A stretch of DNA of 64,000 nucleotides, taken from positions 302,972-366,971 of the forward strand of contig JAWWOW010000005.1 of the NCBI GenBank assembly GCA_033851265.1, in the 5' to 3' direction. The first letter of the stretch is position 1. Every line of letters begins with the position of its first letter. This DNA is from Frankiales bacterium. Lineage in GTDB: Bacteria; Actinomycetota; Actinomycetes; JAWWOW01. The translations under genes and the position numbers were made by a program. The notes below the pieces were generated by a model. The model had not been told where the DNA came from, did no database searches, and was given only the letters and a program-made list of their open reading frames with translations. Positions 1 to 12,152 of this stretch are shown one piece after another.

Positions 1-342
1 CTCGAACAGCAGCGCGCCCTGTGGTCCGGCCCGCAACGGCCCGAAGGCAGCGCCGTGGGGGAGCTCGACATGGGTGCCCGCCGGGCAATGCCGTTGACCG
101 ATCTGCAACTCACCGTCGAGGACAAAGAGCACGTGGGGGCTGTGATGTCCGTGCCGTCGCACAATCATCCCCGGGTCGTAGCGGGCGTACAGGGAGAGGT
201 ACGGCGGATCGGCGGAGAATGCCAGCCACTTTTCCCAGACCGACGACGTAGTGCCATCGGCGTTGCGTTGTGCCTTGACCTGCTGCCAGGGCACATCGGC
301 ATCGTCGAGGTGACGAAACACCGGTTCGCTAGCGGATGACAT
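1..342 (-). CDS. Cupin-domain protein (ChrR/anti-sigma-like cupin fold), C-terminus beyond window edge
   Basis: Reverse-strand frame open from ATG (complement of 340-342) to position 1. GGAGAGG RBS lies 5 nt upstream. Translation MSSASEPVFRHLDDADVPWQQV...RRHGHHSPHVLFVLDGELQIGQRHCPAGTHVELPHGAAFGP has G-x5-HxH...E...G...P-x-G-x2-H cupin-like spacing. Not in the ORF track because no stop falls in the window. Confidence 0.5.
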   Translation of the reverse strand, partial: MSSASEPVFRHLDDADVPWQQVKAQRNADGTTSSVWEKWLAFSADPPYLSLYARYDPGMIVRRHGHHSPHVLFVLDGELQIGQRHCPAGTHVELPHGAAFGPLRAGPQGALLFE

Positions 343-387
343 GGCTGCACCTCTCCGAATCCGTCCCTGTCACGGCATCATCGGCCC

Positions 388-1227
388 ATGGACGTCGACC
401 GCGCCATTGATGAGCTCTACGCACTGCCACCCGACGACTTCACGGCAGCGCGCGATGAGCAGGCCGCCCTGGCCCGCGTGAGTGGTGACGCGACGTCGGC
501 CGCCGCGTTGCGGAAACTACGGCGGCCGAGCCGGAGTGCGTGGTTGGTCAACCAACTGGTGCGCCATCGTGGTGACGCGGTTGACCAGCTGCTCGACCTC
601 GGATCGGCGCTTCGCGATGCACAGAAGTCGTTGGCGGGAGACGACTTGCGTCGGTTGTCAGCACAACGCAGCGCCGTGGTCTCTGCTCTCGCACGCGATG
701 CGCGTCAGCTGGCCGAGGAGCTCGGTCAACCGGTCAACGACGCTATTGCACGCGAGGTTGAGACGACACTCGACGCTGCCCTTGCTGATCCGGCGGCTGC
801 GGAGCAGGTGCGCAGTGGTCGACTGACGACGTCGCTGCAACACAGCGGCTTTGGCACTGGCGCTGACGAGATCGCGTCTCGTCGACCGGCGAAGAAGCCG
901 GTAGGCAAGTCCGACGCGCCCGCCGACGACGGAGCCGAGGCGAAAAAGGCGCTAAGCGTGGCGCGTGCTGAGACGCAGGAGGCGGAGAAGCGCGAACGCG
1001 CGGAAGAGGCGAACCTCGCTGCTGCGTCGGCACGGCGGGAAAAAACGGTACGCCGCGTTGCGGGACTCGAAGAGGATCTCGCGCACGCGCGTCAGGAAGA
1101 TGCAGCGGCGGCTGACGACGTCAGGTCGGCGCACCGCCGGCGCGACGCAGCGACCAAATCGTTGGACGCCGCGCGCCAGAAAGAGGCGCGCGCAAAGGAG
1201 AGGCTGGACAAGGGGGTGAAACGCTAA
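388..1227 (+). CDS. Conserved hypothetical protein, Ala/Arg/Glu-rich coiled-coil C-terminus
   Basis: 279-aa ORF with protein-like N-terminal half (MDVDRAIDELYALPPDDFTAARDEQ...). C-terminal half is low complexity. Divergent from the cupin gene with a 45-bp spacer. Its 3' end overlaps the TetR stop by 4 nt. Confidence 0.55.
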   Translation: MDVDRAIDELYALPPDDFTAARDEQAALARVSGDATSAAALRKLRRPSRSAWLVNQLVRHRGDAVDQLLDLGSALRDAQKSLAGDDLRRLSAQRSAVVSALARDARQLAEELGQPVNDAIAREVETTLDAALADPAAAEQVRSGRLTTSLQHSGFGTGADEIASRRPAKKPVGKSDAPADDGAEAKKALSVARAETQEAEKRERAEEANLAAASARREKTVRRVAGLEEDLAHARQEDAAAADDVRSAHRRRDAATKSLDAARQKEARAKERLDKGVKR

Positions 1228-1820
1228 ACCGCTCTCGGCGTGAGTACCCGTCGCTCCAAAGTCACGCCCGCGACAAGGATCGCCAGCATCTGCCGGAAGC
1301 TTTCCTCGGCATCTTTGTTGCGGAAGGACCCGGCCGCTTCGAGAAGCACGAAGCCGTGGATACCCGAGCGCACCGCCCTGCCGAAGTGTTTGGCGGTCAC
1401 CGGATCAAGGCCCCAGGACGCCACGATCGCATTGAAGGGCTCGAGGGCTCGGAGGTACACCTTGCGCAGCTCGCTGTGGACCGGCAGCGGTGGCTGCATC
1501 GTCAGCTCGTAGCGCCCCGGGTACCTGCGGGCGTAGCCCCGATAGGCCTCCGCAAATGCGACCAGGGCGTCCTCGCCGCTGCGACCCATGACGGAGCCGC
1601 GCAGCACCTCACCAAGGTCGGCGACTGCGAACAAGCAGAGCGCACGGCGCAGGTCGGCCATGCCATCGACGTGGACGTAGAGCGATGGCGCACGAACGCC
1701 GACCTCTTTCGCGACCCGCGCAAGACTCAGGGCAGGGACGCCTTCGTAATCGATGATCGCCACTGCAGCGGCCACGACCGCTTCGCGATCGAGCCCTACC
1801 CGCGGCGCCATGACATTCAT
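1224..1820 (-). CDS. TetR/AcrR family transcriptional regulator
   Basis: 198 aa. N-terminal HTH LSLARVAKEVGVRAPSLYVHV is typical of TetR_N. Divergently oriented to the ABC transporter operon. Confidence 0.85.
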   Translation of the reverse strand: MNVMAPRVGLDREAVVAAAVAIIDYEGVPALSLARVAKEVGVRAPSLYVHVDGMADLRRALCLFAVADLGEVLRGSVMGRSGEDALVAFAEAYRGYARRYPGRYELTMQPPLPVHSELRKVYLRALEPFNAIVASWGLDPVTAKHFGRAVRSGIHGFVLLEAAGSFRNKDAEESFRQMLAILVAGVTLERRVLTPRAV

Positions 1821-1955
1821 ATGTATCAGTGCGCGTCGGCACTTGTCTAAGGACGTTAGGCACCTGCCTTGTGCGGCTCGGTGTCTGGATCTAACGTCTC
1901 GTCAGATTTCGAGGGTGAGCACGGTCATCCAGTGGGACGCGTTGTGGAGGCCAGC
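1821..1955. promoter_or_regulatory. Divergent TetR/ABC-operon control region with inverted repeat
   Basis: gacgttag (1852-1859) and ctaacgtc (1891-1898) form an 8-bp inverted repeat with a 31-nt spacer. GGAGG RBS at 1945-1949. An ~85%-identical copy of this region recurs at 3448-3604 upstream of the second SBP gene. Confidence 0.3.
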
Positions 1956-3422
1956 ATGCGGGTCCGCAGCACACCTCTTGTTGGCGCGTTGATGGTCCTC
2001 GTGGTGCTCGTCGGTGCCTGCGGCAACCGCGCCCCCGACACACTCAAGTCGCAAGCTCGAGCGGGCGCTATCAACGGCAGTGACGGCAACGGCAGCGGGA
2101 CAGGAAATGGCACCGGAGCAGGGACGGGAAGCGGAGCCGGGACGGGCACCGCTGCCGGGACCGGGACGGGTGCCGGAACCGGAATGGGAACGGGCAACGG
2201 GACTGGGACTGGGACTGGAACCGCAACGGGCACCCGCTCCGGTGGCGGGACCAGCAAATGCAGCAGCAGTGGTGACAAGGGCCAGTCCGGCAACACGATG
2301 ACGGTTGGCTTGGTCGCCGACACCACGGGGCCCGTGTCCGGGGTATTCCAGGGTGCGGTGCAAGGTGCGCAGGCGTACGCGGCGTACGTCAACTCCACGT
2401 TCGGTGGCATCTGCGGCATGCAGGTCGTCGTCAAAGCGGCCGACAGCAAGACCAACTGCCAGGGCAACCAGGCGGCAACACAGGACCTGGTCGGGAAGGT
2501 ATTCGCCTTCGTCGGCTCGTTCTCGGTCTATGACAACTGCGGAGCCAAGATCCTGAAGAACTACCCGGATGTCGCCGACGTCCATCGAGCGCTCGACCCC
2601 GCGGCGCAGATCCCAACGAACTTCAGCATTGAGGCGGGCCGGCTGGGCTACGCCAGCGGAATGTTCGAGTACTACGCGAAGAAGTTCCCCGGCCAGATCA
2701 AGGCCGTCGGCACGCTCTCGACCGATGTCCCCGCAGCGGCCGCTTCCCAACGGGCGTTTGTCAACGTGGCGAAGAAGTCGGGTTGGAACTTCGTCTACCA
2801 ACGGGGTGTGGCGGCGACCGAGACCGACTTCACCAGCGACTTCGTCAAGATGTGCAAGCAGAAGGGCGTAAAGGTCTTCTACACATCCGCAACCACCGCG
2901 TCGAACGCCGCTGCAATGGTCAACAACGAGAAGGCCGCCGGCTGCCCAGACAGCCTGATCAACATCATCTCGATCGCCTATGACCAAGCGTTTATCAAGG
3001 CGATGGGGAGCAACGTCAGAGCGGCTGACGGCATGCTCGGTTGGAACGAGTTCGCGCTGTTCTTCAACCAAGAGGAGGCGCGCAACAGCGCGGAGGTCGC
3101 GCTCTTCCAGCAGTGGATGGCGCGGGTCTATCCCGGCCGAACACTCGACCTGTTCGCACTGTTCTCCTGGGAGAGCATGCGGCTGTTCCAGGACGGGATG
3201 GAAAAGACCGCCCCGCAGGCGAAACGCCAGGATCTCGTGGCGGCACTGCGAACGATCACGAAGTTCAACGGTCGCGGGTCGCTCGCGCCCATCAATCCGA
3301 GCTCCAGAACCGTTGGGCCGACGTGTTACGTCCTCTGGGAGCTGCAGAACGGCGTCTACCGACGCGTCGACACGCCGGCAAAGGGCTACCGCTGCGATGG
3401 CCACTACGAGTACGCGTCCTGA
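1956..3422 (+). CDS. ABC transporter substrate-binding lipoprotein, branched-chain amino acid (Leu/Ile/Val)-binding family (periplasmic binding protein type I)
   Basis: ATG at 1956 is in frame with track ORF 1869..3422. Signal peptide plus lipobox [22 protein letters not shown]. About 60-aa G/T/A/S/N linker, then a PBP1-like domain ([15 protein letters not shown]...). About 80% identical to the downstream paralog. Confidence 0.85.
2077..2256 (+). repeat. Coding low-complexity Gly/Thr/Ala/Ser tract (degenerate GGNACN-type repeats)
   Basis: Encodes [60 protein letters not shown], directly after the lipobox Cys. Confidence 0.8.
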
Positions 3423-3604
3423 GGACGACCCGTAGGACCGTGTCTAAGGGCGTTAGGCACCTGCCTTGTGCGGTTCGATGTGTCGTTCTAACGTCTCGTC
3501 AGGTTTTGATGTTGGGGTCGCTTGAACGGGCAGGACCGGCGGCTCACGACGTCGAAGTTGGGGTGAACACGCCCCACCCAGCGGGACGCGTTGTGGAGGC
3601 CAGC

Positions 3605-5074
3605 ATGCGGGTCCGGGTCATCCCTCTTGTCTGTGCGTTGATGGGCCTAGTGGTGATGATCGGGGCCTGCGGCAACCGCGCTCCCGACACCCTCAAGGCA
3701 CAAGCCCGCGAGGGCGCCATCAATGGTGGCGGTGGTACGGGCAGCGGCACCGGTACGGGTACCGGGACCGGGACCGGTACGGGCACCGGCACTGGTACCG
3801 GCACTGGGACGGGGACCGGGACGGGGACGGGCACCGGGACGGGGACTGGCACTGGAACCGGCACAGGAACCGGGACGGGTCCTAATGGTGGCCCGGGCGG
3901 TGCTAACAAGTGCAGCAGCAGCGGTGACAAAGGTCAGTCCGGCACGAGCATGACCGTGGGGCTGGTCGCCGACCTGACCGGCCCCGTCTCCGGCTTGTTC
4001 CAAGGCGCGGTTGAAGGCGCGCAAGCATTTGCGGCGTACGCCAACTCCACCCTCGGTGGGATCTGCGGGATGCAGGTCAACGTCAAGGCAACCGACAGTC
4101 GCACGAACTGCCAGGGCAACCAGACCGCTACGCAGGACCTTGTCAACAAGGTGTTCGCCTTTGCCGGCTCGTTCTCGCTGTATGACAACTGCGGCGCGAA
4201 GATCCTGAAGAACTACCCCGACATAGCCGATGTGCATCGCGCTCTGGACCCAGCCGCTCGGATCTCGACCAACTTCAGCATCCAAGCGGGCAAGCTCGGC
4301 TACGCGACCGGCATGTTCGCGTACTACGCGAAGAAGTTCCCGGAACAGGTCAAGCATGTCGGCACGATCTACGGCGACATCCCGGCATCGGCCGCATCCC
4401 AGCGCGCGTTCGTCAAGGCGACGGAGTCGGTGGGGTGGAAGTACGTGTACAGCCGCGGCGCGGCTGCCACCGAGACTGACTTCACGAGCGACTTCGTCAA
4501 AATGTGCAAGCAGAAGGGGGTCCAGCTCTTCTTCTCGTCGACGACGACGGCGTCGAATGCTGCGGCCATGATCAACAATGAGAAGGCAGCCGGCTGCCCA
4601 CCGTCGCTGATCAACATCATCCCCATCGCGTACGACCAGAGCTTCCTCAAGGCGCTGGGAGGCAACGTCGCGGCTGCCAATGGTCTGCTCGGATCGAACG
4701 AGTTCGCACTCTTCTTCAATCCGGAAGAGGCACGGAACAACGCCGAGGTCGCGCTCTTCCAGCAGTGGATGGCTCGCGTGTACCCCGGCAAGCCGCTCGA
4801 TCTCTTCGCGCTGTTCTCGTGGGCGGATATGCGCCTCTTCCAACAGGGGATGGAGAAGACGGCTCCGAAGGCGAAACGCAAGGATCTCGTGGCTGCACTG
4901 CGAACAATCACGAAATTCGACGATCACGGCGCAATGGCACCGATCAACCCCAACTCTCAATCCGTCGGCCCGACGTGTTACGTGCTCTGGGAGTTGCAGA
5001 ACGGCGTGTACCGCCGCGTCGACACTCCGGCCAAGGGCTATCGCTGCGACGGCACCTACGTGTACGCGGACTGA
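3605..5074 (+). CDS. ABC transporter substrate-binding lipoprotein, paralog of 1956..3422
   Basis: ATG at 3605 is in frame with track ORF 3041..5074. [22 protein letters not shown] signal/lipobox, a (GT)~25 linker, then a PBP1-like domain with long identical blocks to the upstream paralog ([56 protein letters not shown]). Confidence 0.85.
3724..3906 (+). repeat. Near-perfect hexanucleotide (GGN ACN)n tract encoding (Gly-Thr)n tether
   Basis: ggcaccggtacgggtaccgggaccgggaccggtacgggc... encodes [60 protein letters not shown]. Confidence 0.8.
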
Positions 5075-5089
5075 GGCCGAGGCTGAGCC

Positions 5090-7039
5090 ATGGAGATCTT
5101 TCTCGTCTACACCATCCTGGGGATTGTCACGGGCTGCGTGTATGCGATCACGGCGACTGGCCTGGTGGTCACCTACACCACGACCGGCATCTTCAACTTC
5201 GGCCATGGCGCGATCAGCATGTTCGCTGCTTATACGTACTGGCAGCTGACCCAAGCCTGGAACATCCCGCAGCCAATCGCCCTGATCCTGGTGCTGTTCA
5301 TCCTTGCTCCCGCGTTCGGCGTCGTCATCGAACGCGTGCTCATGCGACCGATGTACGGCGCACCTGTCGACCTGACCCTGGTCGTGACCCTTGGGCTGCT
5401 GCTGACATTGCTCGGTTTGGCTTTTTGGGCCTGGGACCCGCAGGTCACGCGGCTACCTGTTGACTTCTTCAACCGCCGCGAGTTTCACGTCGGCTTTCTT
5501 GCGGTGTCCTACACGAAGGTCGTCACGGTCATCGTGGCCATCGCGATCGCGATCGGCCTGAAGGTGTTCTTCTCGCGCACGCGCACAGGTATCGCGATGC
5601 GTGCGGTCGTTGACAACCCGGACCTGGTGGCGATGGCCGGCGGTCGCCCGTACCGGATCCAGCAACTGTCCTGGGCTCTCGGATGTTCGCTGGCGGCAAT
5701 CGCCGGCATTCTCATCGCCCCGCTCACTCAAAACGTGCTGGACATCAACACCCTCACCCTGAACGTCATCAACGGATACGCCGCAGCAATGATCGGCCGG
5801 CTGCGAAACCTGCCCGCAACCGTTGCTGGTGCCATCGGAATTGGGTTGCTAACGCAGTACACAGTCGAGTTTGCGCCCTCAGGACAGTTCTGGAACAAGG
5901 CGTACCAGATCATTCCGATGGTCGTGTTGTTCATCGCACTGATTCTGTTGCCGCAAGACCGACTCCGCTCCGGATCGCTCGCCGCACCAGTTGCCCCGAA
6001 GCCGGCGGGACTGCGCTCGTCCGTGGTGTGGGCCGTCATCCTCGTCGTCGCGACAATCGTGATCTCCGGCCACTTGTCGCTGTCAAACCTGCAATCCGGC
6101 AGCCAAGGCTTTGCTCTGGCTTTTGTACTGCTCTCGTTAGTCGTGCTCACCGGGTATAGCGGCTTGCCGTCTCTCTGCGCGATGACGTTCGTGGGTCTAG
6201 GTGCCTACGCCGTCGGTCACTACACCGCACATGGATCACTCCTGGGCGGACTGCTCGGAGTCTTGCTCGCGATGGCCGTGGGCGTCCTGGTGGCGTTGCC
6301 GACATTGCGGCTCCGTGGGCTCTATCTTGCGCTCGCCACACTCGCCTTCGGTCAGGCGATGTACACCGTGTTCTTCGTCGGGTATCTCAGCAAGGGAACT
6401 GGCACCGGCGTCGGCTTGGACATCGAACGACCGAGTGTGTTCGGAATCTCGACCAGTTCCAACCGCGCATTCCTCATCTTCACTGCGGCCGTCTTCGCAA
6501 TTGCGTCGATCGGCGTCCTCGCCTTGCGGCGGGGTCCGTACGGCCGCCGCATGGCCGCGTTGAATGACTCGCCCGCTGCGTGCGCGACGCTAGGCGTCAA
6601 CATCAACTGGACGAAGCTGTCAATCTTCGCGCTCTCAGCCGGTCTAGCCGGCTTTGGCGGGTTGTTGTTCGGCGGTGTCACACAACTTGTCACGGACACT
6701 GACTTCTATCTATTCCAGAGCCTCATCATCTTGCTACTTGTGCGCATCGGTGGCATCAATACCGTGAGCGGGGCGTTTCTCGGTGCGATGTTCTTTGCTG
6801 CGTTCCCGATCATTCAGACGCATGTCGCCGGGGTCGCAAACCTGCAGTACATCCTGACCGGCGTGGGTGCCATCGCGTTGGCGCGCGACCCCAACGGACT
6901 GGGTCGACGGGTTGCAGAACTCTGCGAATGGGCGCGCAACCTCGTGTCGCGAGAGCGGTCGAAGCCAAAACCGGTGTCGAGCGACAGAGTTCTCGACTAT
7001 CTGCCGGAGGAGGAGAGCCTTGCCACCGCCGGCCACTGA
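5090..7039 (+). CDS. Fused branched-chain amino acid-type ABC permease (LivH-like plus LivM-like domains)
   Basis: 649 aa with two successive polytopic permease modules and the characteristic motifs (GLVVTYTTTGIFNFGHGA...; GYSGLPSLCAMTFVGLGAY). Follows the second SBP with a 15-nt gap. Confidence 0.9.
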   Translation: MEIFLVYTILGIVTGCVYAITATGLVVTYTTTGIFNFGHGAISMFAAYTYWQLTQAWNIPQPIALILVLFILAPAFGVVIERVLMRPMYGAPVDLTLVVTLGLLLTLLGLAFWAWDPQVTRLPVDFFNRREFHVGFLAVSYTKVVTVIVAIAIAIGLKVFFSRTRTGIAMRAVVDNPDLVAMAGGRPYRIQQLSWALGCSLAAIAGILIAPLTQNVLDINTLTLNVINGYAAAMIGRLRNLPATVAGAIGIGLLTQYTVEFAPSGQFWNKAYQIIPMVVLFIALILLPQDRLRSGSLAAPVAPKPAGLRSSVVWAVILVVATIVISGHLSLSNLQSGSQGFALAFVLLSLVVLTGYSGLPSLCAMTFVGLGAYAVGHYTAHGSLLGGLLGVLLAMAVGVLVALPTLRLRGLYLALATLAFGQAMYTVFFVGYLSKGTGTGVGLDIERPSVFGISTSSNRAFLIFTAAVFAIASIGVLALRRGPYGRRMAALNDSPAACATLGVNINWTKLSIFALSAGLAGFGGLLFGGVTQLVTDTDFYLFQSLIILLLVRIGGINTVSGAFLGAMFFAAFPIIQTHVAGVANLQYILTGVGAIALARDPNGLGRRVAELCEWARNLVSRERSKPKPVSSDRVLDYLPEEESLATAGH

Positions 7040-7808
7040 AACGTTCGCTAGCACCGAGCCCGTTCTCGAGGTGATCGGCGTCTCCGTGCGTTTCGGTGGG
7101 CTGCAGGCGCTCGACCTGGTCGACCTGACTGCCCTACCCGCCCAGATCACCGGTCTGATCGGCCCGAACGGTGCCGGTAAGACGACTCTCTTCAATGTCA
7201 TCACGGGGCTCGAGCGGCCGACAGCGGGACGCGTCGTGATTGCTGCCAAAGACGTCGGACGGATGTCGCCGTTCCGCCGGGCGCGACTCGGAATCGGTCG
7301 GACCTTCCAGCGGCTCGAGGTTTTCGGCTCGCTGTCCGTGCACGACAACATCCTGGCGGCAGCGGAGTTTCGAAAGGGTTGGGCCCGCGACGGTTCCAAG
7401 CCGAGAGACGTTGCTCGGGAAGTGATCGAGCGCATCGGTCTAGGCGACGTGAGCGACTCGCGTGTGGAGTCGCTGCCGACGGGCCATGCCCGCCTGGTCG
7501 AGCTAGGACGCGCTCTGGCGACGCGTCCGCGACTACTCCTGCTGGACGAGCCCGGCTCCGGTCTGAACTCGGAGGAAACGGAGTCTTTAGGCCACCTGCT
7601 GACCGAGTTGGCCGACGAAGGCACGGCAATCCTGCTCGTCGAGCACGACATGGAACTCGTGATGCGGGTGTGCCACCGCATCTACGTGCTCGACTTCGGC
7701 AAGATCATCTCGACGGGCACTGCTGCCGACGTGCAAGCAGACCCGGCCGTACAAGCGGCGTACCTTGGCACCGATACCTCCCTTACCCCGGAGGGGGAGG
7801 TGGCCTAG
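7020..7808 (+). CDS. livG: ABC transporter ATP-binding protein, LivG-like
   Basis: Walker A GPNGAGKTT, LSGG-like signature and Walker B LLLDEP. Proposed TTG start at 7020 sits after a GGAGG (7007-7011) and overlaps the permease stop by 20 nt. The track ORF 6867..7808 has no internal ATG before the NBD. Confidence 0.8.
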   Translation: MPPPATETFASTEPVLEVIGVSVRFGGLQALDLVDLTALPAQITGLIGPNGAGKTTLFNVITGLERPTAGRVVIAAKDVGRMSPFRRARLGIGRTFQRLEVFGSLSVHDNILAAAEFRKGWARDGSKPRDVAREVIERIGLGDVSDSRVESLPTGHARLVELGRALATRPRLLLLDEPGSGLNSEETESLGHLLTELADEGTAILLVEHDMELVMRVCHRIYVLDFGKIISTGTAADVQADPAVQAAYLGTDTSLTPEGEVA

Positions 7809-8519
7809 GTGACGACAGCAGCGCTAGAGCTCATCGACGTGCGCGCGGGCTACGGCCGTATCGAGGTGCTGCACGGCGTCTCGTTCGCAGTGCCCACCGG
7901 CACGGTGTTCGCTCTTCTCGGACCCAACGGGGGCGGCAAGTCCACGACGATGCAGGTGATCTCCGGCAAGATCCGGCCGACGGCCGGATGTGTGCACATC
8001 GCCGGAACGCACGTCAACGGCGCCAGCCCCGATGGGTTGACGCGTGCCGGGGTGTGCCGGATCCCCGAGGGTCGCGGCATCTTCCCGAACCTCACCGTGA
8101 CCGAGAACCTGCGGATGTGGACGTACGCCGCTGAGCTGTCGTTGCGGGATGTCGAAGAGCGCACGTACGCGCGGTTCCCACGACTTGGTGAACGCCGCCG
8201 GCAGCGGGCGGGCACGTTGTCGGGTGGCGAGCAGCAGATGCTGGCGATGTCACGCGCATTGGTGTCCGAACCCGCATTGCTGTTGCTCGACGAGATTTCG
8301 ATGGGCCTCGCGCCCCTGATCGTTGCCGAGCTCTTTGAGCTCGTCGGTCAGCTTGCACAAGAAGGCATCACCATCTTGTTGGTGGAGCAGTTCGCACATA
8401 CGGCGTTGGCCGTCGCTGACTACGCGGCTGTCATGACGCAGGGCCAGATTGCGGCCGTCGGTGAACCCGGCGATGTCGAGAGCATGGTTTCCGAGGCGTA
8501 CCTGGGAGGTGTCGCATGA
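7809..8519 (+). CDS. livF: ABC transporter ATP-binding protein, LivF-like
   Basis: GTG start immediately after the livG stop. Walker A GPNGGGKST, signature LSGGEQQML and Walker B LLLDE. Confidence 0.9.
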   Translation: MTTAALELIDVRAGYGRIEVLHGVSFAVPTGTVFALLGPNGGGKSTTMQVISGKIRPTAGCVHIAGTHVNGASPDGLTRAGVCRIPEGRGIFPNLTVTENLRMWTYAAELSLRDVEERTYARFPRLGERRRQRAGTLSGGEQQMLAMSRALVSEPALLLLDEISMGLAPLIVAELFELVGQLAQEGITILLVEQFAHTALAVADYAAVMTQGQIAAVGEPGDVESMVSEAYLGGVA

Positions 8520-9871
8520 AGCGACGCATAGCGATGGCGAGCCTTGCTACCGGAGGGGCGCTGTTCGTCACAGGCGGCCTGGGCATGGGTGGTGTGTGGG
8601 CAGCCGACGGGGCCGGCTCGGGCTTTGGCTCGCTCGGTCTGGTTGGTCTCGCGCACTCGGTACGCCTCGTCGGCCTCAACGCCGACGGCAAAGAGGGTGA
8701 AGGCCAGGTGCCCTATAGCGCTGCCACTCTCGCCACCGGCCCATTCGGTCATGCGTTGTCATCGATCGTCTGGCCCGGTGGCACCGCGGGCAACGCTGGA
8801 TCAACGCTTGGGTTGTTGGGCAACCCGGCCTGCGCCGCCGCGTCCAACGTGCATCCGATCCCAGGGTGCCCGCCGCTTCCGGTCGCGCTTTCAGAGAAGT
8901 ACCCAGCTCTCAACGACGATCTGAAGGTCGAGTCGCAGACCAACAGCGGCGACGCCAGTGACAGCATCAACCAGGGTGATGGCGCAGTAGTCATGTCCGC
9001 CACGGCCCTCGAGGACGATGTTCGAGCGGAGTCCTCGGTCGCCGGCACTCGAATCACTGGCGTTGGCGTCTTTGGCCCGAGCAGCGCTGCGGCGCGGACC
9101 CAGCTCACCGGGGCCAAGTCGGCGGTCAGTGACGCGTCGAGCCAGGTCCGTGACGTCGACCTGGCGGCCGGCGTCTTCAAGATCGGTTCGGTGAAATCAG
9201 TGGCGCACGCAGTCACGAATGGGGTGACTTCAAGCGGCACCGGCAGCTCGGTCGTGACGGGCTTCACCATCGCGAAGGTGCCGGTGACGGTCGATGACAA
9301 GGGGATCCACGTCAACGCGACTGGTGGCTCTGCCAAGGCAGCGAATGACGCGGTTAACAAGGCCGTCAAGAACTTCAGCTTCCAGGCCTATTTGACTCAG
9401 CCGACGTCGACCACCAAGGGCGGCGATACGACCTACAACTCGGGCAGCCTCGTCATCGTGATCCTCGATCCGTCGTACCAGTCCGGAGCCAACAACGACG
9501 GGCACGTGCTAGAGATCGGTGGGGCGTCGGTCACTGCTTCGGCGCTACCAGGCTTCGGCGGGCCGCTCCCGCCGTTCGTCTCGATTCCGCCAGTGGGGAC
9601 TACGCCCACCACCACGCTTCCGGGCTTGGGAGCAAGCACGGGCACGGGCACCACCGGCGGATTCGCGCCGGCCCCGAATACGAGCGGACCTAATGGGTCG
9701 GTCCCGCCAGTGCAACTGGCCGGAAAGCCGCTCGGTGAAGTGTTCGGCGGGTTGTCACCGGCGTGGGCCGTCGCAGTGCTGTTCGGGGTGGGCTTCATGG
9801 CGGCCGGCTTCCGCCGCTTACCGGACCGGCTGTTGGAAGACACCGGCGCTAGTTGTCCCTTGGAGGATTGA
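8516..9871 (+). CDS. Exported protein of unknown function with N-terminal signal peptide and C-terminal transmembrane anchor
   Basis: ATGA overlap with livF stop. N-terminal MKRRIAMASLATGGALFVTGGLGMGGVWAADG. C-terminal hydrophobic AWAVAVLFGVGFMAAGF followed by RRLPDRL. Thr/Ser/Gly-rich. Confidence 0.65.
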   Translation: MKRRIAMASLATGGALFVTGGLGMGGVWAADGAGSGFGSLGLVGLAHSVRLVGLNADGKEGEGQVPYSAATLATGPFGHALSSIVWPGGTAGNAGSTLGLLGNPACAAASNVHPIPGCPPLPVALSEKYPALNDDLKVESQTNSGDASDSINQGDGAVVMSATALEDDVRAESSVAGTRITGVGVFGPSSAAARTQLTGAKSAVSDASSQVRDVDLAAGVFKIGSVKSVAHAVTNGVTSSGTGSSVVTGFTIAKVPVTVDDKGIHVNATGGSAKAANDAVNKAVKNFSFQAYLTQPTSTTKGGDTTYNSGSLVIVILDPSYQSGANNDGHVLEIGGASVTASALPGFGGPLPPFVSIPPVGTTPTTTLPGLGASTGTGTTGGFAPAPNTSGPNGSVPPVQLAGKPLGEVFGGLSPAWAVAVLFGVGFMAAGFRRLPDRLLEDTGASCPLED

Positions 9872-10464
9872 TGGCCAGCGAGACACTTGTGACCGGGGGT
9901 ACGGCGGTCAGTCGCCAGCATCGGCTGGCCGACCGCGTCGCGTCGCTTCGCACGCGCGCGAGCACAGGCTCACTCGACCGTTGGCTGCTGTGGATCGGCG
10001 GGGTCCTCCTGCCGCTCGGTGTGATGCTCGTGTTCCTCGGTTGGTGGGGAACGTCGCACACCGTCTTCGTATTCGAGCAGCTGCCTTACGTCGTCTCCGG
10101 GGGCCTGCTCGGGCTGGCGTTCGTCTTTGCCGGCGGGTTCGTGTACTTCGCCTACTGGCAGACGGTCATCGTCCGTGAGCTGCGTACCGAGCGCCACGAA
10201 GTTGTGTCCGCACTCCGCCGTATTCAGTCGACGCTTGAAGGCCAGAGTGGGCTCGCGGGGACCGCCACGCAAGGCGCCACGGCCTCGGCTTCGACGGGAA
10301 CGTTTGTGGCGACACCCACCGGCACGATGTTCCATCGACCCGAATGCCCGGTCGTCGCCCGACGTGAGGACACCACTGAAGTCGACGCGAATAGCACCGA
10401 GCTGTTGCCCTGCGGGATCTGCGATCCGCTGGGAGAAGCGACCGCCGAGGTGCTCGAGCACTAG
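9871..10464 (+). CDS. Small membrane protein (2 TM) with C-terminal Cys cluster
   Basis: ATG at 9871 overlaps the previous stop (TGATG). GGAGG at 9862-9866. Two hydrophobic helices. C-terminal HRPECPVV...LLPCGICD is a possible metal-binding motif. Confidence 0.55.
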   Translation: MASETLVTGGTAVSRQHRLADRVASLRTRASTGSLDRWLLWIGGVLLPLGVMLVFLGWWGTSHTVFVFEQLPYVVSGGLLGLAFVFAGGFVYFAYWQTVIVRELRTERHEVVSALRRIQSTLEGQSGLAGTATQGATASASTGTFVATPTGTMFHRPECPVVARREDTTEVDANSTELLPCGICDPLGEATAEVLEH

Positions 10465-10574
10465 CCAGCGCAGCAGGAGTGCGACCACCCTGCCGCGAAT
10501 ACAACAGCCAACAGTGGCGCCTTCTTTCCTGCGCCGAGATCGCCCGCCCAACCGCGGAAGGCAAGGGCACCCCT

Positions 10575-12152
10575 ATGTACCGCTACGCGCGCCTCGTCCT
10601 GGCTATCGGGACACTCACGACGATCGCCGTGTTGACCCCGATGGCGCGCGGCTCCGGCGGGCCGCAGCTCTCCACCCCGATGGCTTGGGGGACCGTCGAC
10701 TTCGGCGATCGGGTGCAGTACCGGCTGGACGGCGCGGCTTGCGCAGGCACTCCGGTGCACGTGCACATCGGCGGGTCGAGCCGGGTTGACGCTGTCGGTC
10801 CGCTCTCCGGCGCAGTGCGCGACCCACTCGCTCCAGGTTCCTGCATCGGCATCGCGCGGGTCCCGACCGAAGCGGCCGTGCGGGCGAAGGGATGGGCTCC
10901 TGGCGACCGCGTGACCGTGCGCCTGGTCTCGCCGGGCGACGAGGTCGCATTGCGCTATCAACGGGTGGAGGTGGACCAGGGGCGCGGCGCTAAGGGCAAG
11001 CCGAAGGCGGTGACGCCGGCGGTGCGTGACCCCCGCGGCGGTTCACGGGATCAAGCGATGTCGATGTCGACCGGCGACGTGGTCTCGATCGGCCAGGTCG
11101 ACCTGACGAAGATCTACTCGATCTCGTTGCGGGTCTGTCTGACCGAGCCCAAGCCGCACATCACGCCTACTCGGCTCGAGCTGCGCGCAGGTGCGCGCAA
11201 CGCACCGTCGATCATCGGTGTCGTCGACGTAGCCGACGACCTCAACAACGCTCACAAGTCGAACTTCGGCTGGCCGAACTGCTGGCAGACCCAGCCGTGG
11301 CCGATCATCAACAAGGTTCCTGGTCGAGCGCCGGAACTCTTCGTCGCTGTCGACCTCACTGCGATGCCGGTCGAGATCAGCTGGATCGACTTCAACGGCA
11401 CCGGCGCAAAGGTGCCGGACGCACCGGCTACCGATCCTGTGGGTACGCAGCGAATCTTCGACGGGAAGTCGTTCACGGGGTGGACTGCGTCCAGTTGCGC
11501 CATCGACGACGACGGCAGTGTTCGACAGACGCACACGAAGTCGCCGGCCAACTACGCGCCGCTCGTGACAGAGGGCTTTGTCGGCGAGCAAGGCTGCTCG
11601 ATGACCTACACCGCGCGAAAGCTGCACAACGTCGTCATCCGGTTTGCATACCGACTGCAATCCTTCGAGGACAATGGTGCGGTCTACGTCGGTGGGCGTG
11701 AGATCCAGATGCGCGAGGCTGGAGAGTTCCTTACGGGGGGTATCCAGGGCAACACCGTTCCCGACGCCCTGACCGGGTGGGCGATCGACAATCCCCCCAG
11801 CGGCTACCCGGCGCAGCGCATCAAGTCGAACTCGTATCCGGATTGGAATCAGATCGAGGTCGTGCAGATCGGCTCGCGTCACATCGTGCGGATCAATGGC
11901 CGAACCGTCACCGACTGCTCCGACTGTCTGCCCGATCCGGCGCCGTACAACTTCGAGGTGCAAGCACAGCCGAACTTTTCCTATACCTACGGCGTCGGTT
12001 ATCGCATGGACACGGGGCCGACCAATCCCGTCACCGACGATCCTTCGAACTGGGGCAATCTCTCGTTCAAGAACTTCCGCGTCTATGACTGCAAGTCCGC
12101 CACCGATCCAGTCTGCGTCGGTGGCCCGAGTGTGAATGGCCTGCCCCAGTGA
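10575..12152 (+). CDS. Secreted protein with C-terminal DUF1080/concanavalin-like (3-keto-disaccharide hydrolase family) domain, tentative
   Basis: Signal peptide MYRYARLVLAIGTLTTIAVLTPMARG. C-terminal YPDWNQIEVVQIGSRHIVRINGRTVTDC resembles the DUF1080 W-N-x-E-I...G-x-I-x-x-x-L-N-G motif. Start set at the first ATG after an in-frame stretch lacking an RBS. Confidence 0.7.
   Translation: MYRYARLVLAIGTLTTIAVLTPMARGSGGPQLSTPMAWGTVDFGDRVQYRLDGAACAGTPVHVHIGGSSRVDAVGPLSGAVRDPLAPGSCIGIARVPTEAAVRAKGWAPGDRVTVRLVSPGDEVALRYQRVEVDQGRGAKGKPKAVTPAVRDPRGGSRDQAMSMSTGDVVSIGQVDLTKIYSISLRVCLTEPKPHITPTRLELRAGARNAPSIIGVVDVADDLNNAHKSNFGWPNCWQTQPWPIINKVPGRAPELFVAVDLTAMPVEISWIDFNGTGAKVPDAPATDPVGTQRIFDGKSFTGWTASSCAIDDDGSVRQTHTKSPANYAPLVTEGFVGEQGCSMTYTARKLHNVVIRFAYRLQSFEDNGAVYVGGREIQMREAGEFLTGGIQGNTVPDALTGWAIDNPPSGYPAQRIKSNSYPDWNQIEVVQIGSRHIVRINGRTVTDCSDCLPDPAPYNFEVQAQPNFSYTYGVGYRMDTGPTNPVTDDPSNWGNLSFKNFRVYDCKSATDPVCVGGPSVNGLPQ

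Follow-up and report, generated by a model that had tools for sequence, protein, structure and literature searches.

An old tandem duplication of a substrate-binding lipoprotein gene together with its control region, next to a divergent tetR-family gene, in an uncultured Frankiales bacterium

Two adjacent and closely similar genes for substrate-binding proteins (SBPs), here called SBP1 and SBP2, lie at the head of a LivK-type ATP-binding cassette (ABC) importer operon in a 64,000-nt stretch of the 1.04-Mb contig JAWWOW010000005.1 (the 64-kb window, in which all positions are counted), which comes from the metagenome-assembled genome (MAG) of an uncultured Frankiales bacterium (Joint Genome Institute, JGI, sample 3300044720). 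Each gene is preceded by a similar upstream region, and a gene for a TetR-family regulator diverges from the first of them. The question that this locus raises is whether two such genes, so alike in their coding and upstream DNA, are young copies of one another, as an earlier note on the sequence had proposed, or an old pair that selection has maintained, and, if the latter, what has been maintained and under whose control.

We suggest, at a probability of about 0.78, that a unit of ~1.6 kb, comprising a TetR dyad, a promoter, a leader with its ribosome-binding site (RBS) and an SBP gene, was duplicated in tandem in an ancestor of this lineage, that the event is old, that both copies have been kept by purifying selection and are co-regulated by TetR, and that SBP1 delivers a related but different substrate to the same permease. 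The components of the two units, and the regulator gene beside them, are as follows.

1224..1811, minus strand: TetR-family regulator gene (TetR_N and TetR_C_33 by Pfam matches), divergent from SBP1
1844..1862, no strand assigned: operator-like dyad O1, 19 bp, TGTCTAAGGACGTTAGGCA, between the predicted core promoters of the divergent tetR and SBP1 genes
1869..1897, plus strand: putative promoter P1, with −35 TTGTGC (1869–1874), a 17-nt spacer, −10 TAACGT (1892–1897) and a predicted start near 1904
1904..1955, plus strand: short leader of SBP1, with GGAGG at 1946–1950 and without the 52-nt segment of copy 2 and the orthologues
1956..3422, plus strand: SBP1, lipoprotein substrate-binding protein and diverged paralogue, with a signal peptide ending in a VGAC lipobox, a degenerate Gly-Thr linker and a Peripla_BP_6 domain
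3441..3459, no strand assigned: operator-like dyad O2, TGTCTAAGGGCGTTAGGCA, 18 nt past the SBP1 stop codon
3466..3494, plus strand: putative promoter P2, with −35 TTGTGC (3466–3471), a 17-nt spacer, −10 TAACGT (3489–3494) and a predicted start near 3501
3501..3604, plus strand: long leader of SBP2, of ancestral type, with a predicted stem-loop at 3504–3557, the 52-nt segment at 3523–3574 and GGAGG at 3595–3599
3605..5074, plus strand: SBP2, orthologue-like substrate-binding lipoprotein whose (Gly-Thr)n linker is near-perfect, standing first in the ancestral operon

Reality and age of the duplication

The tandem arrangement is not the product of misassembly, since an independent contig (L002, from a different sample, JGI 3300044703, and assembled separately) covers positions 381–4035 of the window with three mismatches and crosses the junction between SBP1 and copy 2; an assembly artefact as the source of the tandem copies is thereby ruled out. 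The two proteins are identical at 385 of 488 positions (79%), and the regions upstream of them (1836–1955 and 3433–3604) align over 120 nt with 83.3% identity and a single 52-nt gap in copy 1, corresponding to copy-2 bases 3523–3574. These values come close to the ~80% and ~85% given in the earlier note, which had also correctly seen a GGAGG RBS in both copies, placed in each case five nt 5′ of the ATG. A 33-mer, the 19-mer dyad and an RBS-proximal 22-mer each occur exactly twice in the window and about zero times in shuffled sequences.

The similarity of the copies does not make them young. In a codon alignment that is gapless over the 380-codon domain, SBP1 and SBP2 show a Nei–Gojobori synonymous divergence (dS) of 1.08 over their full length and of 0.97 within the domain, and four-fold degenerate sites are 43–45% identical, 43% being near the expectation from composition by itself at a third-position G+C content (GC3) of 0.82. 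Since silent sites are saturated, the duplication is old, and the claim that it is recent has to be abandoned; indeed, orthologues from neighbouring species (dS 0.87–1.07) have diverged just as far at silent sites as the two paralogues. With all pairs saturated within this range, dating of the duplication against the species split by dS is uninformative. The non-synonymous divergence (dN) is 0.13, and at a dN/dS of about 0.12 both genes have been retained under purifying selection; both open reading frames (ORFs) are intact, and the signal peptide, lipobox, cysteines and RBS are conserved in each.

In the upstream DNA the similarity is concentrated in two blocks, one of 56/63 identical positions (1844–1906) and the other of 28/30 (1926–1955), between which lies a diverged stretch with 12 of 19 positions identical plus the indel. 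Measured against the neutral 43% identity of four-fold sites, the probability of the first block is 6e-14 and that of the second 1e-8. Of the seven mismatches in 1844–1906, five are in the promoter spacer (1877, 1881, 1885, 1887 and 1889), one is at the centre of the dyad (1853) and one at 1906. Because identity in these blocks is far above that of four-fold sites and the mismatches are confined to the dyad centre, the spacer and the vicinity of the predicted +1, the pattern of similarity indicates purifying selection on discrete elements, which would be the dyad, the putative promoter hexamers and the RBS-proximal block.

Dyad, putative promoters and the divergent tetR gene

O1 and O2 are identical at 18 of 19 positions and differ solely in the central base (the dyad of both copies, TGTCTAAGGNCGTTAGGCA), and no further operator copy was found in the window at up to three mismatches. 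Each dyad ends six bases upstream of the −35 hexamer of its SBP promoter. In eight aligned sequences the two hexamers and their 17-nt spacing are invariant or nearly so (TTGTGC-N17-TA(A/C/G)(C/G)GT), and the TetR-bearing loci have a fixed intergenic layout, TGTCTAG-N5-CTAGAGACGTCCC, TTGTGC, 17 nt, TA(A/C/G)(C/G)GT, which was also read directly in L083, is covered by profile matches in L087–L091 and was aligned in L093 and L095 (L numbers designate related loci). The P2 spacer differs from that of L095 at 3 of 17 positions and the P1 spacer at 6 of 17 (counted by eye on the alignment). When the paralogues are compared, the conserved dyad–promoter block runs as far as the predicted starts (near 1904 and 3501) and stops there, and we suggest that P1 and P2 are promoters of the sigma-70 type. 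As to the dyad itself, its arms pair in 89% of cells across the eight sequences, and the only pair that varies, 7/13, shows a symmetrical change, being G:C in distant orthologues and A:T in both copies of the window.

The related loci that we compared comprise 80 from GTDB genomes, three from metagenome contigs and nine more obtained via exact-protein look-ups, and among them only loci of the clade nearest to the window have the divergent TetR. From six training loci we built an nhmmer profile of dyad plus promoter; it matches 6/6 of these and 5/5 independent TetR-bearing loci (E <= 2e-12), and has no match among the ~78 related loci in which TetR was not detected. TetR is also carried by all three of the closest relatives (L093, L094 and L095; 84–86% identical to the TetR of the window), and the dyad was seen in L093 and L095 by direct alignment. 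Control of both SBP copies by TetR is supported because the dyad–promoter layout accompanies the divergent TetR in all 14 related loci that have it, and we consider such control likely; the proposal that the divergent TetR is the candidate regulator of both copies is supported at the level of comparative sequence, the dyad–promoter profile finding every TetR-bearing locus tested and none without TetR.

At L089 (2876–2929) the region upstream of the SBP gene has no recognizable TetR gene; a promoter-like TTGTGG...TACGGT and the left arm TGTCTA are retained there, but the right arm is gone. This single case fits operator decay following the loss of a repressor.

The inverted repeat gacgttag/ctaacgtc, to which the earlier note had drawn attention as slightly degenerate in copy 2, is present as described: GACGTTAG (1853–1860) and CTAACGTC (1891–1898) form a perfect repeat in copy 1, and copy 2 matches at 7/8 positions (GGCGTTAG). 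It is not a conserved hairpin, however. The repeat is kept in the window and its two closest relatives, but with the distant orthologues included three of its pairs are unpaired in 5–6 of 8 sequences, and folding z-scores are weak, so that we rejected it as a conserved helix; on alignment it reads as the right arm of the putative operator together with the −10 hexamer.

The derived copy, the proposed mechanism and its rivals

Which of the copies is the original can be read from relatives, as a single SBP is found in the 80 genome loci, in 8 further metagenome loci and in the 3 syntenic loci of the closest relatives. A metagenome scan with SBP2 as query yielded only three loci, at 46–55% identity; the closest relatives (L093/L094 and L095, from the same sample series) were reached through homologues of the last gene of the operon, and they are syntenic with the window from an Rrf2 gene through acyl-CoA dehydrogenases. 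In L093 and L095, which are single-copy, the dyad–promoter block is conserved as well. The domain of their single SBP is 82–85% identical to that of SBP2 and 74–75% identical to that of SBP1; among these four sequences unique substitutions number 45 in SBP1, 9 in SBP2 and 13–15 in the relatives, and departures from outgroup-conserved positions number 10 in SBP1 vs 5 in SBP2. The leader of SBP2 aligns with those of L093 and L095 (sharing GGCAGGAC, GTCGAAGTTG and CACGCCCCACCCAGCGG) and faintly with those of distant orthologues. Since protein identities, substitution counts and leader all agree, SBP2 with O2/P2 appears to be the ancestral head of the operon, and SBP1 with O1/P1 the derived, fast-diverged paralogue next to tetR.

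RNAalifold predicts a stem-loop in the ancestral-type leader (3504–3557 in the window, about 4955–5010 in L093 and about 1853–1910 in L095); in an alignment of 3 sequences only, its basal stem of 9 bp shows one compensatory pair and several G–U-compatible changes. The 52-nt loss in copy 1 takes out the 3′ arm of this structure. Translation of SBP1, or the stability of its mRNA, may be controlled differently after this loss. Regulation that is independent but similar, as earlier envisaged, holds in part: both copies look functional and similarly controlled, but the control is not fully symmetrical, the leader of copy 1 being without the 52 nt. Separately, the C-rich stretch CACGCCCCACC of the ancestral leader can pair with the GGAGG RBS.

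In the mechanism that we propose, tetR would be read away from O1/P1 in one direction and SBP1 in the other, followed on the same strand by O2/P2 and the series SBP2-LivHM-LivG-LivF-hyp451. One TetR dimer species would bind both O1 and O2, with the O1 dyad also overlapping the putative promoter region of tetR itself, and one ligand would free TetR and so de-repress both promoters together. Transcripts from P1 probably read through into SBP2 and the permease genes, because no terminator-like site was found on the plus strand between SBP1 and SBP2. Both lipoproteins would dock on a single LivHM-G-F core, and most likely, by analogy with LivJ/LivK, SBP1 would deliver a related, somewhat different substrate to the same permease.

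Considering the alternatives, the high overall similarity of genes and upstream DNA might be taken to mean that the copies are young and serve gene dosage, with their upstream identity not yet decayed and their functions redundant; we find this scarcely credible, given that the silent sites (dS ~1.0, four-fold sites 43% identical) are as far apart as those of other species' orthologues, that the upstream mismatches spare the dyad arms and both promoter hexamers and are accompanied by the 52-nt leader indel, and that unique substitutions are so unevenly shared between SBP1 and SBP2. It could also be that gene conversion between the 5′ regions keeps the upstream identity, in which case one promoter/operator could be non-functional. 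The proportion of synonymous differences (pS) is indeed 0.42 in the first 40 codons against 0.57 in the whole gene, and the two short, highly identical upstream blocks could be conversion tracts; these blocks, however, are equally conserved in L093 and L095, which as single-copy loci cannot undergo conversion, distant orthologues also keep the dyad arms and both hexamers, and in the window the blocks are split by the diverged stretch and the indel, with mismatches where orthologues vary as well. Conversion is thus quite unlikely to account for the pattern.

We regard it as very unlikely that what is conserved upstream is an RNA element at work in the transcript, be it a riboswitch, an attenuator or the hairpin of GACGTTAG and CTAACGTC, and not a DNA operator with a promoter. 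Copy 1 of the element does fold somewhat better than its shuffles (z = −2.3), and the 8-bp repeat is kept close to home, as described above; copy 2, however, has a z of only −0.65, the true leaders give unremarkable values of −0.3 and −1.05, Rfam covariance models find no match at E <= 1 on either strand of window positions 1–12000, the helix pairs are lost in most of the aligned sequences, and the conservation stops at the predicted +1 and includes hexamers at a fixed, promoter-like 17-nt spacing. Nor can we lend more than the slightest credence to the idea that one copy is decaying or silent, for instance that SBP1 is a relaxed, redundant copy turning into a pseudogene. In favour of it are the faster evolution of SBP1, the partial loss of its leader and the JGI gene call, which cut SBP2 to 374 aa; yet both ORFs have kept every feature listed above, the dN/dS of the pair is 0.12, and the short SBP2 call is an annotation choice, its N-terminus being conserved with L093/L095.

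The preferred reading, of an old, co-regulated pair of binding proteins serving one permease, nevertheless has to accommodate several observations that weigh against it. Since a scan with the E. coli consensus finds no promoter here, the promoter call is a comparative one, based on conservation between loci and on the actinobacterial −10 rule TANNNT. The TetR-bearing loci are also the closest relatives, so that the co-occurrence of TetR and dyad is confounded with phylogeny, a confound that only L089 breaks in part. With respect to the substrate, the SBP1-specific changes comprise L130V in the GPVSG(V/L)F loop and L191V, Y255S, F309Y and P339S near strand ends, and it is plausible that SBP1 and SBP2 differ in ligand; Val130 of SBP1 (Leu in SBP2) is, however, aligned to Tyr18 of LivJ by an hhalign match of 31% probability, and SBP1-specific changes lie near cleft-facing strand ends in 13/45 cases vs a background of 19%, a weak and non-significant enrichment (P = 0.07, with strand ends as a proxy). 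Finally, as regards timing relative to the L093/L095 split, neighbour joining places SBP1 basal with bootstrap support of 78% vs 22%, and parsimony counts 7 vs 4 informative sites. Either the duplication preceded that split and a copy was then lost in L093/L095, or it followed the split and SBP1 underwent an about five-fold acceleration; long-branch attraction could lie behind either of the two tree results.

The importer, its binding proteins and known analogues

Downstream of SBP2 the operon continues on the plus strand with the following genes.

5090..7039, plus strand: fused LivH–LivM permease, 649 aa, with BPD_transp_2 twice in one protein
about 7071–7808, plus strand: LivG-like ATPase (BCA_ABC_TP_C and ABC_tran matches among LivG and LivF ATPases, Pfam and NCBIfam)
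7809–8519, plus strand: LivF-like ATPase (Pfam and NCBIfam matches)
8516..9871, plus strand: hyp451, last gene of the operon, 451 aa, predicted to be secreted, all-beta and membrane-anchored at the C-terminus; follows LivF in most related loci

The order SBP-LivHM-LivG-LivF-hyp451 is widespread in uncultured Mycobacteriales, Frankiales and Acidimicrobiia and is kept in most of the 80 loci. There is no second permease set of LivHM type in the window, and hence one permease/ATPase core at the locus. The linkage of the SBPs to a LivH/LivM-type permease and LivG/LivF-type ATPases places them in the context of a LivK-type (HAAT) importer. The sequence of hyp451 has a signal peptide, a predicted all-beta core, a Pro/Thr/Gly-rich stalk and a C-terminal transmembrane segment, and most related loci, across Actinomycetota, keep the gene at the end of the operon. 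Neither Pfam nor NCBIfam gives a match to it; its AlphaFold2 (AF2) model has a mean predicted local distance difference test score (pLDDT) of 65, and the porins returned by Foldseek, at TM-scores of 0.12–0.18, are meaningless, leaving no credible fold match.

Two annotations at this locus can be corrected. The JGI gene call for SBP2 begins at an internal ATG, 3950, and thereby omits the signal peptide, lipobox and Gly-Thr linker; judged by the RBS and by the N-terminus conserved with SBP1 and L093/L095, this call is truncated and the full ORF from 3605 is right. The TetR protein combines an N-terminal TetR helix–turn–helix (PF00440, 24.7 bits against a cut-off of 24) with a TetR C-terminal domain (PF13305, 73.2 bits), and the longest ORF of its gene reaches 1820. 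Because the N-termini of 11 orthologues, all of which start MA(S/T/P)R(V/L/M)GLDR, align to the second ATG, the true start is probably the ATG at 1809–1811 and the annotated start misplaced. An AT-rich, −10-like motif, TGNTAYAYM, lies 8 nt 5′ of this ATG, and TAGACA, the reverse complement of the left dyad arm, lies at a −35-like distance from it; the former suggests that the tetR mRNA is leaderless or nearly so.

Both SBPs consist of a signal peptide, a lipobox with Cys22, a Gly/Thr-rich linker and a 380-aa domain, which matches PF13458 (Peripla_BP_6) with 117.4 bits in SBP1 and 117.6 in SBP2 (cut-off 31.7). The AF2 model of the domain (pLDDT 95.1) is a two-lobed alpha/beta, LivJ-like type-I periplasmic binding protein (PBP) for which the top Foldseek matches in PDB are of LivJ/LivK type, with TM-scores of ~0.7. 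By sequence the distance is greater: identity to any solved SBP is at most 19%, a PDB sequence search gives only E = 0.0013, and the ligands of the nearest structures are very diverse (amino acids, pyroglutamate, aromatic acids, fatty acids and urea). Seven cysteines (C153, C168, C195, C300, C330, C457 and C480 in SBP1 numbering) are invariant or nearly so throughout the family, which suggests several disulfide bonds in the mature domain, unusual for LivJ-type binding proteins.

The Gly-Thr tether (2085–2234 in SBP1 and 3737–3879 in SBP2) is also present in L093, L095, L009 and L034. SBP2 and the single-copy relatives have it as a near-perfect (GT)x~24; in SBP1 it is degenerate. Since codons vary within the repeat (pS about 0.77), selection seems to act on the peptide repeat itself, and slippage alone would not explain it. 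Two of the differences between the window and L002 fall within the repeat, at 3826 and 3865.

Extra binding proteins recur in this transporter family, and the window is the only tandem case seen among the loci examined. In Mycobacteriales and Frankiales MAGs of GTDB, a second, unlinked SBP paralogue without an adjacent permease is seen in L011–L013, L015–L017, L019, L024, L043, L061 and L071, and operon-linked and unlinked SBPs come as pairs from the same genomes, for example in L004 and L015, L010 and L017, L018 and L019, L020 and L071, and L022 and L061. A more far-reaching view, which we put forward tentatively and consider rather doubtful, is that SBP1 is a neofunctionalized receptor for a new ligand, that the copies share TetR control and differ post-transcriptionally, and that they belong to an importer subfamily restricted to uncultured Actinomycetota, with (Gly-Thr)n-tethered SBPs, a fused LivHM, a surface-anchored all-beta accessory protein, recurrent extra SBP paralogues (dispersed elsewhere and in tandem here) and a substrate class outside the known LivK-type ones.

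The closest analogue is the livJ/livKHMGF system of E. coli (LIV-I and LS; HAAT, TC 3.A.1.4), in which LivJ and LivK differ in specificity and share one LivHMGF core (PMC5807212). There, as here, paralogous type-I (cluster B) SBPs are encoded near each other on one strand; the E. coli genes have their own promoters and serve one core, as SBP1 and SBP2 would in the reading proposed here, and livK, the promoter-distal copy, heads the permease operon as SBP2 does. LivJ and LivK are 77% identical; their genes, however, are separated by panZ and have upstream regions that can be aligned only around the RBS, whereas here the putative operator and promoter are still recognizably duplicated. The present SBPs also differ in being lipoproteins with a Gly-Thr linker, and LivH and LivM in being fused. 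The regulator of livJ and livK is Lrp, and not an adjacent TetR. In Salmonella, argT and hisJQMP likewise provide tandem paralogous SBP genes of overlapping specificities for one membrane complex, HisQMP (PMC10846223). Unlike the SBPs of the window, ArgT and HisJ are of the type II class and bind polar amino acids, and no TetR-type operator duplication accompanies them. Both argT and hisJ have their own promoter. With cassettes of the TetR/TetA type the locus shares a TetR-family gene divergent from its target and a palindromic operator between or overlapping the promoters, but here an importer operon takes the place of the efflux pump as target, a second copy of operator and promoter lies 1.6 kb downstream, and the operator is a predicted one.

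The arrangement therefore repeats a known kind and involves no new mechanism, an ABC core shared by duplicated binding proteins being textbook knowledge (LivJ/LivK, ArgT/HisJ). What it offers, apart from the truncated SBP2 call and the misplaced TetR start now corrected, is a clean natural case of an entire regulatory module, from operator and promoter through leader to gene, that was duplicated and has long been kept, and in which both coding and non-coding constraint are readable against saturated silent sites. The residues and leader features that separate the derived copy from the orthologue have been identified, and the predicted TetR operator (TGTCTAAGGNCGTTAGGCA) and promoter provide testable predictions in a lineage without cultured members.

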